Part shown: in pieces, positions 1,356-4,582 of the stretch
Layout: every line of letters starts with the position of its first letter
How positions within the stretch are numbered: the stretch's first letter is position 1
DNA from: a virus
Lineage: Duplodnaviria; Heunggongvirae; Uroviricota; Caudoviricetes
DNA length: 8,266 bases
Reading direction: 5' to 3' (one strand)
IMG/VR virus record: IMGVR_UViG_2740892234_000014
Translations under genes and position numbers: made by a program
Notes under the pieces: model-generated
Seen by the model: the letters and a program-made list of their open reading frames with translations, nothing else
Told to the model about the DNA's origin: nothing
The model's database searches: none

Positions 1356-1403
1356 TAAGGCGGGACACTTTCAGGATTTTGAATTTATTCAATTTTTTCC
1401 TTT

Positions 1404-1435
1404 CTCCAAAATCTCTCCAAAACTTTTCCCCAAAA
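1404..1435. promoter_or_regulatory. Three phased (C/T)CCAAAA A-tract units at 11-13 bp spacing, possible bend or arm-type binding region
   Basis: CTCCAAAA at 1404-1411 and 1415-1422, CCCCAAAA at 1428-1435, in an AT-rich non-coding stretch at the left end of module B. Confidence 0.25.
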
Positions 1436-1562
1436 CAGGACCACGCATTTTACAGCATTTTTATACATGGGTGAGCTTACTAGGACAGAAAAGTATTCCA
1501 GTTTGTTTACCCATATCGCTTTCCGAATGAGATTTTTGATGTGATTTCTTCGTGTTGAAAAA

Positions 1563-1575
1563 CCACATAATGTGG
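1563..1575. promoter_or_regulatory. 13-bp perfect palindrome CCACATAATGTGG (candidate operator) next to TTGAAA -35-like hexamer (1555-1560)
   Basis: Perfect inverted repeat read directly from the sequence, about 65 bp upstream of the small ORF start at 1642. No tool-based promoter prediction. Confidence 0.3.
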
Positions 1576-1641
1576 TATTAGAATTAGCTATCAAGATTCA
1601 CTTTGAATCCGTTTTGAATCCCATTGAACTCAGGAGTGACT

Positions 1642-1845
1642 ATGAAGCGTAAAAGTGTGGCTTTGTTACAAGCCATTGGCTCGGTTATAGCCCTGAGCCC
1701 GACGGTCGTTTCAGCAAATGGCATGCCAGCGAATCCAGTTTCCGCTTTGCGTCAGGATGCTGCGGCTATCAGAGGCGATTTCCAAAAAGCAATGGTATCC
1801 GTTAACGTTGAAAAGCTGAACAATGCCAGATCAAAAAGAAAGTGA
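1642..1845 (+). CDS. Hypothetical small protein (67 aa) with signal-peptide-like N-terminus (MKRKSVALLQAIGSVIALSPTVVSA|NG)
   Basis: ATG at 1642 preceded by AGGAG (1632-1636) at 5-nt spacing. The track ORF begins at an upstream TTG at 1624. TGA at 1843-1845. Overlaps the next ORF start by 23 nt. Confidence 0.4.
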   Translation: MKRKSVALLQAIGSVIALSPTVVSANGMPANPVSALRQDAAAIRGDFQKAMVSVNVEKLNNARSKRK

Positions 1846-2290
1846 GAACACCAAACTCACTTGTGAAGAACAAAAGGATAATGAACTGGTTTCTCGAGTA
1901 ATCGAAAATCCAGAGGTCTTAAACAGGGTTTTGGATAGTCCGCAGGTGCGGGCTATTGTTTGCCAGCATTTTCAGGGGCCTGTTCCGCCACCTTCAATGC
2001 TTAAAAAGTATGATCAACTGGTGCCTGGGCTTGCAAATCGACTTGTTGAGTTGACCGAAAAAGAGCAGGCTCATCGCCATAAAACAGTGGCTGATAGCAT
2101 TGATATTGCCAGAGATGGTCAAACAAAGGCTTTTTGGTTGGCAATATTGATCATCTTAGCTGCCACTGTCTTTGGCGTCATGGGGGAGACAGTTCTTGCC
2201 GGAACTCTCGTTTCAATAGATCTTGTTGCATTGGTTACGGCATTTATTGTTGGAAAACATTATTCTAAGCAGGAACCTGATCAAGATTAG
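1823..2290 (+). CDS. DUF2335-like predicted membrane protein (155 aa): soluble N-domain with PPP and HRH motifs plus two C-terminal TM helices
   Basis: ATG at 1823. Hydrophobic segments AFWLAILIILAATVFGVMG and LAGTLVSIDLVALVTAFIVG. The pattern ..PPPSMLKKY..EKEQAHRH.. matches my recollection of the DUF2335 family. Followed immediately by a terminator hairpin. Confidence 0.55.
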   Translation: MPDQKESENTKLTCEEQKDNELVSRVIENPEVLNRVLDSPQVRAIVCQHFQGPVPPPSMLKKYDQLVPGLANRLVELTEKEQAHRHKTVADSIDIARDGQTKAFWLAILIILAATVFGVMGETVLAGTLVSIDLVALVTAFIVGKHYSKQEPDQD

Positions 2291-2296
2291 TCTCCG

Positions 2297-2321
2297 AACC
2301 CCGGTTGATGCCGGGGTTTTT
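2297..2321 (+). terminator. Rho-independent terminator (AACCCCGG-TTGATG-CCGGGGTT + T-run)
   Basis: 8-bp perfect stem, 6-nt loop and T tract 7 nt after the stop of the 1823-2290 ORF. Confidence 0.6.
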
Positions 2322-2366
2322 ACACTAGCAAAGCAATATCAACATTTTTCAGCTGCATTTATTTCG

Positions 2367-3485
2367 TCAAACAACCAATTTAACCCATTCCTGACCACGA
2401 GTATCGTTATAACGATCGGTGGTTGCCTGGACTTTATGTCCCAGTAATGTTTTTGTATCAATACCCTGCGTGCGGTACAGTCGTTCTGACAGGGAGCGTT
2501 GTTCATGAAATGTTGGCGGAGTTTTTCCTGCTGGTGGAGTTATCCCAGCCAGATCCCGTGCTTTGGCAAAGTAGTCGCTCAGGTTGTCTTTACTCATCGG
2601 CTTTGGTTGTTTCTGGTGCCGACTATGGATTAGATATGGACTTAATATTCTGTCTCGGCACCCATCAATAACTTCTTTTAACGTTATCCCAATGGCATCA
2701 CAGCGTAGTGTAAGCGGTAACGCCAGACGCATTCCGGTTTTTCCCTGGGTGATATGCAAGTGTTCGTTCCACACATCTGAAAAACGCATGTGGCAAATGT
2801 CATCACGGCGCTGACCAGTAACAATCGCAAGAAGCATTGCGTTACGGATAAAGTGTTTTTCAGGCGTTGCGTTGTAAATTTTTTGCCAGTCTTCCAGGGT
2901 GAGCCTGGCTCTAGTTACTTTAGGGATCGGTTTACGGGTAGCCTCCGGAGGATTCCATCCAGGAGGAACTTCCCCTGCATGCTGTGCTTCTTTATAAATA
3001 TCAACCCATAATCCACGATTTACTCTCGCTGTGCTGACCATGTCTTTATCCAGCCACTCATCCAGTATTAATGCAAAGTCTCTTACTTCCAGTTCTTTCA
3101 ATGGGTGGTTTCCCAGACGGGAAACCAGGTATGCAGCCATTCGGGCTTTTTCTTTGTGAGTTGTAGCTGCAATATCTCCATTTTTCAGTCGCGTGTCCTG
3201 TATTTTCAGATATCGATCAACCCATGCCTTTAATCTGATACCCCGACGCTTTGTTGCTGACGGACTTTCATCAATTTTGCGCATGAAATATTCAGCCTCT
3301 GCTGCAGCTATTCGCTGATTGGCTGTGGAAGCGATTTTTTCTGCCTTACCTTTGTCTGTTCCGAGCCCGTGAAATTTTCCAGTCACAGGGTTTTTATACT
3401 GGTAGTAAACTCTGCCAGTTCTGCGATCAAATTTTTCGTAAAGTCCGGCTACGTCAGTGCTGTTTTTTCGTGGCCTCGGTGACAT
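2367..3485 (-). CDS. int: Tyrosine recombinase / phage integrase, lambda Int family (module B), 372 aa
   Basis: ATG at 3483-3485 with AAGGAG RBS upstream; TGA at 2367-2369. C-terminus TFHEQRSLSERLY...LLGHK...DRYNDTRGQEW closely parallels lambda Int TFHELRSLSARLY...LLGHK...QYRDDRGREW (recalled). Box I TGQRRDD and KTG present. Confidence 0.92.
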   Translation of the reverse strand: MSPRPRKNSTDVAGLYEKFDRRTGRVYYQYKNPVTGKFHGLGTDKGKAEKIASTANQRIAAAEAEYFMRKIDESPSATKRRGIRLKAWVDRYLKIQDTRLKNGDIAATTHKEKARMAAYLVSRLGNHPLKELEVRDFALILDEWLDKDMVSTARVNRGLWVDIYKEAQHAGEVPPGWNPPEATRKPIPKVTRARLTLEDWQKIYNATPEKHFIRNAMLLAIVTGQRRDDICHMRFSDVWNEHLHITQGKTGMRLALPLTLRCDAIGITLKEVIDGCRDRILSPYLIHSRHQKQPKPMSKDNLSDYFAKARDLAGITPPAGKTPPTFHEQRSLSERLYRTQGIDTKTLLGHKVQATTDRYNDTRGQEWVKLVV

Positions 3486-3723
3486 GAGTTAAAATCTCCT
3501 TCAGTGCATCATCATCGCCAGTATGAATTTCCGGCGCAATTCCTGTTTCACCAGGTCCAACAAATACTGCTCGGCGATCTATCAGCCAACGCCCACGAAT
3601 TTTTTGTGGTCTTGGAACGATGTATCCTAGTTTTCCGTATTTCACCAGGGTAGTGTTTGTTATTGGGAGACTGAACCGTTTTGGCTTCCACTCATCGAGC
3701 GTTATCAGGTACTGTTCGCTCAT
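3454..3723 (-). CDS. xis: Excisionase (lambda Xis-like), module B, about 89 aa
   Basis: MSEQYLITLDEWKPKRFSL... parallels the lambda Xis opening MYLTLQEWNARQRRPRSL (recalled). Overlaps the int start by 32 nt. The track ORF 3454-3732 begins at GTG; the ATG at 3721-3723 is the likelier start. Confidence 0.7.
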   Translation of the reverse strand: MSEQYLITLDEWKPKRFSLPITNTTLVKYGKLGYIVPRPQKIRGRWLIDRRAVFVGPGETGIAPEIHTGDDDALKEILTHVTEATKKQH

Positions 3724-3775
3724 GGCTATCACTCCGGAACGCGCCAGTTGCAGAATACCAACGACAACTGGCGAC

Positions 3776-3822
3776 GGTTGAACATTAAAAATCAGCCTGA
3801 CTCGGGATCAGTTTTTGCCAGA
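3776..3822. repeat. 47-bp direct repeat, copy 2 (contains the stop codon of the exonuclease gene)
   Basis: Identical to 1299-1345. Flanks diverge immediately 5' of the repeat (A: ..GCGATATGG, B: ..CTGGCGAC). Confidence 0.9.
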
Positions 3823-4477
3823 TAGCTGAAACGTATTTTGCCTGATAACGGGCGTCATCAAGTGCATTATGGCGCTCACCTTCGAATGGGATAGCAGTTC
3901 TGGCATCGAAGTCTATGGCTTTCCCCAGCTCAACGATTGTGCGTACATCGCGATCGTTGTAGTAACGCCACGGGCAGGGGATCCCCTGCCGTTCGTATGA
4001 ACGGCGCAAAATCGTGTTGTCGAAGTTGGCTCCATTTCCCCAGACCTGAACAAAAAATTCACCGGAGTTTTCGTCGATAAATTCCCGCAATTGTAACAGT
4101 GCATCATCTAACGGGATTTCATCGGTCATAATGGCAGATTGCGCTTCGCGTGATTGCTTAAGCCACCATTTAATGGTGTCCCGATCAATGACTCCGCCAG
4201 CAGTTTCCAGATCAATAGTCTTACTAAATTCCGGTCCCATATCTCCGGTTTGCGGATCGAAAAATATTGCACCTATTGAGATGATCGGGGCATCAGGATT
4301 TTTTCCCATGGTTTCAAGGTCGATCATTAGATGGTTACACGTCCTGCTGGTGGATGTGATTTCTTGATGACCGTTCACCTTAATTGAGAGATCTGCCGTC
4401 TCGCCAGTTTCATTATCGCTATCGTGATGCTGATTGCCGCCAGTGTTCTCCTTGTGTGGATGTTCAGCGCCTTCCAT
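3785..4477 (-). CDS. DEDDh (DnaQ-like) 3'-5' exonuclease domain, C-terminal part of the large prophage gene; this copy is cut off from upstream coding sequence by an in-frame TAG
   Basis: Motifs Exo I MIDLETMG, Exo [11 protein letters not shown], Exo [12 protein letters not shown], resembling Rv2179c-type 3'-5' exonucleases. TAA at 3785-3787. Track start is ATG at 4477; an alternative start is the ATG at 4325-4327 (MIDLETMG). In-frame TAG at 4532-4534 where the variant copies have CAG. Confidence 0.8.
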
Positions 4478-4582
4478 TTCCTCCGGATCATCTTCCTGAA
4501 CTTCAACCTGATACTCTTCATCGAATGTTTCCTAGTATGTTGCGTCGCCCATCACCGCGCCACAATCAGGGCAGTTGCCGCC

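Follow-up and report, generated by a model that had tools for sequence, protein, structure and literature searches.

Many toxins of the PanAT toxin-antitoxin (TA) systems are membrane proteins, in which a charged N-terminal region is followed by C-terminal transmembrane (TM) helices, and which depolarise cells (Kurata et al. 2022, PMC8832971). In multidomain PanA antitoxins, neutralisation is achieved by the fused domain, which is also a stand-alone antitoxin, with Panacea being accessory (Ernits et al. 2023, PMC10440598). Here, a two-gene cassette that resembles these systems in several respects was examined by computational analysis of a viral DNA sequence of 8,266 nucleotides (nt) from the Caudoviricetes (IMG/VR record IMGVR_UViG_2740892234_000014), the whole of which is referred to as the window. 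The cassette comprises an open reading frame (ORF) encoding a small protein of 67 amino acids (aa; ORF1, positions 1642..1845, + strand) and a second, overlapping frame encoding a 155-aa membrane protein of the DUF2335 family (ORF2, 1823..2290, + strand). An earlier note on this DNA had described the pair as accessory cargo in which a secreted-type peptide is translationally coupled to a DUF2335-like membrane protein. Comparison with homologous loci shows that the pair belongs to a two-gene module, widespread and so far uncharacterised, which looks like a new form of membrane-toxin TA or defence system.

The likeness to PanAT extends to several features. Both are bicistronic, with overlapping genes, are horizontally mobile and are found in chromosomes as well as prophages; ORF2, like the PanAT toxin, combines a charged cytoplasmic N-region with C-terminal TM helices, and the PanAT antitoxin makes contact with its toxin directly ahead of the TM segment. 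ORF1, however, lacks the Panacea/DUF4065 domain (PF13274), which occurs only in homologues in two cyanobacterial loci (L017 and L022), where the protein encoded upstream of DUF2335 consists of a SocA_Panacea domain (PF13274, 5e-20 and 3e-21, respectively) and then an ORF1-like module. This fusion matches the published 'linear neutralisation' architecture of PanAT. Unlike the case of the PanAT toxins, the toxicity of DUF2335 and its neutralisation are proposals, and no published PanT cluster is identified as DUF2335 in the searchable parts of the text and supplements. An association with a different antitoxin was observed in a related cassette, L078, in which the stop codon of the DUF2335 gene is overlapped by a HigA-family antitoxin gene (TIGR02607, 97 bits versus a cut-off of 47.7), which thereby occupies the slot that HigA takes after the toxin gene in higBA; the window differs from higBA in that it holds neither a HigB-like RNase nor a HigA gene. 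A weaker HTH_3 gene lies 3' of DUF2335 in L083, and a downstream helix-turn-helix (HTH) gene was observed in only two of ~40 loci.

Both genes of the pair are annotated in RefSeq (WP_000824186.1 and WP_001113310.1). ORF1 runs from an ATG at 1642 to a TGA at 1843-1845 and is preceded by the Shine-Dalgarno sequence AGGAG (1632..1636, + strand), located 5 nt before the ATG and kept in two divergent cassettes (L077 and L078). ORF2 extends from an ATG at 1823 to a stop codon at 2288-2290, and the two genes overlap by 23 nt (1823-1845). The reading frames, the strong ribosome-binding site, the overlap and the PPP and HRH motifs of ORF2 are all present as the earlier note had described, and the translational coupling that it proposed is likely, given that the genes overlap.

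ORF2 is a clear member of the DUF2335 family (PF10097), with a score of 48.1 bits against a curated gathering cut-off of 25 (E-value 1e-12, residues 55-89), and of PHROG 3996 (phrog_3996, 'membrane protein', 6.5e-43), which is filed under the category 'moron, auxiliary metabolic gene and host takeover'. It shares the two-TM architecture of these families. Alignment, hydropathy and AlphaFold modelling all point to the family arrangement of GP-x-PPP and EKEQ-x-HRH motifs followed by two TM helices. The N-domain carries FQGPVPPP and EKEQAHRH (PPP at residues 55-57, HRH at residues 84-86), whereas the hydrophobic segments at residues ~103-121 (KD19 2.4) and ~124-144 (KD19 2.27) were modelled as a confident helical hairpin (pLDDT ~85). 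The DUF2335 assignment and the two C-terminal TM helices of the earlier note are both supported. The charges flanking these segments suggest, by the positive-inside rule, that both termini of ORF2 are cytoplasmic and that the outside loop is restricted to ~3 residues.

Profile searches and structural modelling place ORF1 in an unannotated family of ~65-aa two-helix proteins. Homologues with 60-99% identity are present in Escherichia, E. albertii and Salmonella, and comparison with three divergent copies gave ratios of non-synonymous to synonymous substitution (dN/dS) of 0.16-0.30, indicative of purifying selection. The family is defined by two motifs, F/L-x-G-[MI]-G-S-[VI]-L-D-[LI]-x-P (motif 1) and S-D-x-E-A-[LI]-x-x-D-W-x-x-V-G-x-D-[LM]-x-x-A (motif 2), to which ORF1 aligns as ALLQAIGSVIALSP (residues 7-20) and ALRQDAAAIRGDFQKA (residues 33-52), respectively. 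A HMMER scan of 1.84 billion representatives at a threshold of E <= 0.001 recovered 265 clusters of small proteins (50% identity), nearly all of them 55-80 aa long; a word-index profile search added few members, such that the full HMMER scan was needed. Family members match PHROGs of unknown function only, and no model in Pfam or NCBIfam matches ORF1 or typical members of the family. The AlphaFold model of ORF1, computed with a 137-sequence alignment, comprises a helix at residues 2-18, a loop, and a second helix at residues 32-66 (mean pLDDT 83.8). Sequence searches of solved structures returned no match for ORF1 or ORF2, fold searches that included predicted viral structures returned no significant likeness for either, and no DNA-binding, enzymatic or signalling domain was identified in either protein with Pfam and NCBIfam models.

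Several members of the small-protein family depart from the typical form. Motif 2 is duplicated in P0061 and P0072; P0155 combines a CsrA domain and HEAT repeats with a C-terminal match to the small-protein profile, and P0053, with 731 aa, contains 11 stretches that are matched by it. An NCBI record names a 67-aa Salmonella homologue of ORF1 (P0040) as 'cell wall metabolism sensor histidine kinase WalK', which is evidently a mis-annotation.

Species-representative genomes spread over many phyla supplied 38 DUF2335 loci in which the association between the small protein and DUF2335 was examined; they include Pseudomonas, Pantoea, Xenorhabdus, Morganella, Fusobacteriaceae, Bacteroidia, Cyanobacteria, Rickettsiales, Victivallales, Planctomycetes and others. 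In nearly every case motifs 1 and 2 are present in the ORF that adjoins the start of DUF2335 or overlaps it. A profile constructed solely from the distant upstream ORFs matches ORF1 at an E-value of 2e-5, with no off-target match among 14,990 six-frame segments. A second profile, built from database sequences and largely without the 38 loci, matched the upstream ORF in 31 of them, and every one of its matches lay directly upstream of DUF2335, with none elsewhere in the same set of segments. With either profile, the upstream ORF was matched in 36 of the 38 loci, where start-stop overlaps of 4-50 nt between the two genes are usual. Conservation of ORF1 and its co-occurrence with ORF2 in distant loci, which the earlier note had put forward as a check, are therefore supported, and the partnership is conserved far past what chance or synteny would lead one to expect. 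The 130 ORFs that flank the 36 pairs represent 124 different Pfam families, none of which is present at more than two loci, and no conserved third gene was found beside these pairs; the module is autonomous.

The partnership is asymmetric. DUF2335 is almost always accompanied by the small partner, whereas the small protein can also stand by itself or accompany different proteins. Among nine sampled contexts of the small protein, five had DUF2335, two were orphans, one had a 54-aa one-TM protein and one a 270-aa protein of unknown function encoded 121 nt past the small-protein gene. None of 5426 complete Escherichia coli genomes carries DUF2335 alone, and the only degraded cassette, that of strain A8, keeps ORF1. 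An asymmetry of this kind would fit a toxin and its antitoxin. The single-TM context (L081, 309-473) consists of the small protein P0058 and then an overlapping gene for the 54-aa protein, which has a C-x-x-C tail, with no DUF2335; DUF2335 may thus be one of several membrane proteins with which the small protein can associate.

Taken together, the autonomy of the module, its links to Panacea and HigA and the asymmetry between the partners fit DUF2335 as a membrane effector and ORF1 as its neutraliser. Additionally, the window cassette has the overlapping genes, autonomy and patchy, mobile distribution that are associated with TA pairs, with its 23-nt overlap, its presence in 3.9% of E. coli genomes and its occurrence at three prophage positions. 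The pair is tentatively interpreted, with a confidence that stops a little short of even, as a TA-like or abortive-infection module with a membrane effector of predicted toxicity. ORF2 would be an inner-membrane protein with a helical cytoplasmic N-domain, a long juxtamembrane helix that includes EKEQAHRH, and a two-TM hairpin, while ORF1 would be a small helix-loop-helix protein kept at a fixed ratio to ORF2 via the overlapping frames. ORF1 could feasibly bind ORF2 in the cytoplasm and restrain the membrane-active form; loss or displacement of ORF1, for example upon phage infection or loss of the element, would then free DUF2335, which may oligomerise and depolarise or permeabilise the membrane. 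The cassette would in that case be a type II-like TA or abortive-infection module whose toxin acts at the membrane, and the prophage would carry it either as a defence or to secure its own persistence. The superinfection-exclusion or abortive-infection role that the earlier note had suggested as a possibility gains indirect support from the TA associations of homologous loci.

A broader version of this proposal is that the pair represents a new, multi-phylum family composed of a ~65-aa two-helix neutraliser, acting as a Panacea-associated domain, and a two-TM effector, and that as prophage cargo (a moron) it protects lysogens of Shiga-toxigenic and other E. coli against other phages; we regard this as possible, and with appreciably more reserve. 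DUF2335 is widespread and without known function, and its small partner falls outside Pfam and NCBIfam, so that an obligate mobile module of the two offers a system that can be tested. Should the proposed roles be true, a new type of membrane-acting TA or defence system could be added to those described, and the presence of the cassette in prophages of O26, O121, O103 and O111 strains may affect the phage susceptibility or prophage stability of Shiga-toxigenic strains.

A number of observations weigh against a TA-like function. The links to antitoxin domains amount to three loci, two with Panacea and one with HigA, and many of the genes that flank the pair in distant loci are housekeeping genes as opposed to components of defence islands. 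No recognisable DNA-binding domain was identified in ORF1 with Pfam and NCBIfam, and classical antitoxin autoregulation is not evident; a palindrome does lie within the spacer of the predicted promoter, and it is partly conserved in L077 and absent from L078, the most divergent cassette. In the Escherichia/Salmonella clade ORF1 looks exportable (KD19 1.79), and export would place its conserved helix 2 on the opposite side of the membrane to the ORF2 N-domain, which was itself modelled poorly (pLDDT < 50, residues 1-56). The defence models of PADLOC-DB 2.0 gave no match to ORF1, and ORF2 matched only PD-T4-6, at 15.6 bits, which was judged to be noise. The searchable literature on DUF2335, PF10097 and COG5346 contains no report of toxicity or neutralisation, and mentions only a 'phospholipase'. 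Papers on type VI and type IV secretion systems refer to DUF2335 as 'phospholipase / Tle1-like' (PMC6267618, 10.1101/2023.07.16.549128, PMC13600407). This label is unfit for PF10097, whose members are small and have two TM helices, and DUF2235, which we take to be Tle1, was probably meant.

The strongest of the alternatives draws on the position of the cassette in the host genome. The prophage that carries it is lambdoid and inserted at potB/potC, and the gene order in E. coli E2865, as in many O26, O121, O103 and O111 strains, is potD, potC and the pair, after which come the int, xis and exonuclease genes of the lambdoid prophage. Both cassette genes were found in 211 of the 5426 complete E. 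coli genomes (3.9%), and carriers include prophages of O26, O121, O103 and O111 E. coli. In cargo-less prophages at the same potB/potC site, ~37 nt separate the attL-proximal arm from the int stop codon, as opposed to ~900 nt here, and an O157 prophage that lacks the cargo ceases to align at ~1463. The extra ~900 nt, placed between features that are adjacent in related phages, together with a promoter and terminator of its own, both of which are sequence predictions, fit the definition of a moron. Positions 1463-2330 thus constitute a moron comprising promoter, two genes and terminator, with the attL arm on one side and the stop codon of int on the other, in agreement with the accessory position that the earlier note had assigned to the pair.

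The int-attL junction is a variable hot spot for cargo, at which four states were observed: no cargo; the pair alone; the pair with a gene encoding an ORF6N domain, as in strain SK6988 (L004, 4973-5530), where the pair lies at the same junction with 90% identity; and ORF1 with ORF6N but without DUF2335, which has been deleted in strain A8 (L094, 3043-3862). Related cassettes with 59-77% protein identity lie at other accessory positions of other prophages, namely downstream of the tail-fibre genes in L077, with an equivalent terminator, and in the nin region in L078. The cassette is therefore mobile among prophage accessory sites, including the int-attL junction, the position downstream of the tail-fibre genes and the nin region. 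In this part of L078 (6467-6766 and 6891-8668), the HigA gene has beside it, on the other strand, one gene for an HTH plus Peptidase_M78 protein (spr1629-like repressor/antitoxin) and one for a 226-aa protein of unknown function; the nin region may thus hold a second TA or defence pair.

Prophage-expressed inner-membrane proteins are typical exclusion factors. The pair could encode a membrane complex that is not toxic and that serves to exclude superinfecting phages or to bring about some other lysogenic conversion. In it, ORF2, with ORF1 as a cytoplasmic subunit, would block DNA entry or another phage step, or alter the envelope, without killing the cell. In favour of this, three different prophage backbones hold the cassette, complete with promoter and terminator, where morons classically lie, and the PHROG class of ORF2 agrees. 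The pair also resembles RexAB of lambda, SieA of P22 and gp15 of HK97 in that these are prophage membrane proteins encoded at accessory positions and transcribed from signals of their own. No similarity in sequence or fold to these proteins was found, however, and the pair, unlike such exclusion or abortive-infection morons, extends beyond phages and across phyla and has an obligatory small partner. An exclusion protein is as a rule confined to a single phage lineage, whereas the pair crosses phyla and, outside prophages, lies mostly in housekeeping surroundings; moreover, the Panacea and HigA fusions and couplings are left unexplained. Superinfection exclusion is considered unlikely on balance.

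Those same surroundings could be taken to indicate a membrane regulatory or stress module that operates outside genetic conflict, with DUF2335 as a membrane-tethered sensor and the small protein as a cytoplasmic modulator, for example, and with incidental pickup by prophages. Consistent with this, the pair is widespread and often lies amid housekeeping genes, neither mobile-element nor defence genes recur beside it, no defence model matches it, and the small protein is found also without DUF2335. The distribution within E. coli is nevertheless patchy, at 3.9% of genomes, the cassette moves between prophage hot spots, associations with antitoxin domains exist, and neither protein has the DNA-binding, enzymatic or signalling domain that might be looked for in such a module. 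A regulatory role is viewed as a somewhat poorer prospect than exclusion.

A third possibility is that ORF1 is a small peptide exported by the Sec pathway, with a periplasmic or signalling role alongside ORF2. By inspection and hydropathy only, its N-terminus has the positively charged (MKRK) and hydrophobic (KD19 1.79) regions of a signal peptide and ends in V-S-A, with small residues at -3/-1, and the earlier note was correct in so far as the N-terminus of the enteric proteins resembles a signal peptide. The hydrophobic segment aligns, however, with motif 1 of the family, of which the enteric clade is a hydrophobic variant. The motif is non-hydrophobic in ~96% of family representatives, for which the median of the KD19 maximum is 0.79, with values >=1.6 in only 5 of 126. 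No part of ORF1 is under stronger constraint than residues 1-20 (dN/dS 0-0.02 at dS ~0.95), which is the reverse of the usual evolution of signal peptides as generic, fast-changing targeting sequences. Cleavage would strip the conserved motif from mature ORF1, the module follows a cytoplasmic domain in L017 and L022, and the predicted outside loop of ORF2 comprises ~3 residues only. Export of ORF1 is unlikely because the motif is non-hydrophobic family-wide, is the most constrained part of the protein and follows a cytoplasmic domain in cyanobacteria, and because so little of ORF2 is predicted to lie outside; the label 'secreted peptide' is probably wrong, and a Sec-exported partner for ORF2 is judged improbable. 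The possibility that ORF1 is spurious and the DUF2335 gene alone is real, for which there is the small size of ORF1 and its want of a Pfam or NCBIfam match and nothing more, is negligible and is refuted by conservation, given the strong Shine-Dalgarno sequence, purifying selection, and motif-bearing homologues in dozens of loci and 265 clusters.

The make-up of the window determines which of its features are real neighbours of the pair. Fifteen runs of exactly 10 N join its segments, one at 1346-1355 and 14 between 4583 and 7575, and BLAST against a real genome revealed the window to be a mosaic in which 1356-4582, with 99.6% identity to E. coli E2865, is the sole contiguous real-genome stretch. 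Positions 1-1345 are an alternative int/xis module, the last 47 nt of which match the xis/exonuclease junction, and past 4583 the segments represent a single prophage exonuclease gene in alternative alleles with 84-100% identity. The int/xis genes at 1-1240, left of the pair, are therefore no physical neighbour but an artefact of layout; what look like repeats and int genes in tandem elsewhere in the sequence are likewise artefacts of the N10-joined arrangement. The neighbour to the right is a lambda-type integrase gene (2367..3485, - strand; Arm-DNA-bind_1 and Phage_integrase domains, RefSeq annotation), convergent with the cassette, followed by an excisionase gene (3454..3732, - strand; Pfam Exc and phrog_629), and the reading of the pair as a self-contained two-gene cargo transcribed opposite to int/xis is supported.

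The potB/potC sequence of K-12 is the same as that of the lysogen up to ...TTATTCA and diverges exactly at window position 1356, indicating that everything rightwards of 1356 is prophage DNA. The first 107 nt (1356..1462) form the attL-proximal arm, common to cargo-less potB/potC prophages, and adjoin the same integrase type in 1635 of the 5426 complete E. coli genomes. Within the arm, at 1401-1435, are three tandem 11-nt direct repeats (TTTCTCCAAAA, TCTCTCCAAAA and TTTCCCCAAAA); they sit in sequence common to all prophages of this integrase type and are plausible candidates for arm-type Int sites. Rfam and tRNA scans of the region returned no matches. The junction of this prophage was observed also in L095, a 155-kilobase record (NZ_CP074792.1, 'plasmid p94_0962-1') in which potC, potD and cobB are present, and which is probably a chromosomal fragment mis-assigned as a plasmid.

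The left end of the cassette (1463..1554, + strand), beginning at the alignment break, consists of AT-rich DNA upstream of the promoter; the region upstream of ORF1 has 36% GC, as opposed to 43-48% in the coding parts. A sigma-70-like promoter was predicted at 1555..1584 (+ strand), with -35 TTGAAA (1555-1560), an 18-nt spacer and -10 TAGAAT (1579-1584), amounting to 10 of 12 consensus matches, and the -10 TATTAGAAT is kept in the divergent cassettes L077 and L078. A perfect palindrome was indeed found in the AT-rich region, as reported in the earlier note, but it measures 15 base pairs (ACCACAT-A-ATGTGGT, 1562..1576), the reported 13-mer being contained within it. Its position within the spacer of the predicted promoter makes it a candidate operator. 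When the 179-nt region was shuffled, 5.5% of the shuffles gave an equally good palindrome (p ~0.055), and it is thus only modestly unusual. No second copy was found within 25 kilobases of prophage, and a role as a shared prophage operator was rejected on that basis. The predicted 5' untranslated region contains a tandem direct repeat, TTTGAATCC x2 (1602..1621, + strand). At the other end of the cassette, the clean terminator of the earlier note proved to be a GC-rich hairpin (2296-2319) followed by TTTTT (2296..2321, + strand), with a predicted energy of -20.7 kcal/mol (z = -3.9), which a consensus terminator scanner had missed because the stem runs into the T run; an equivalent hairpin lies 3' of the cassette in SK6988 and L077.

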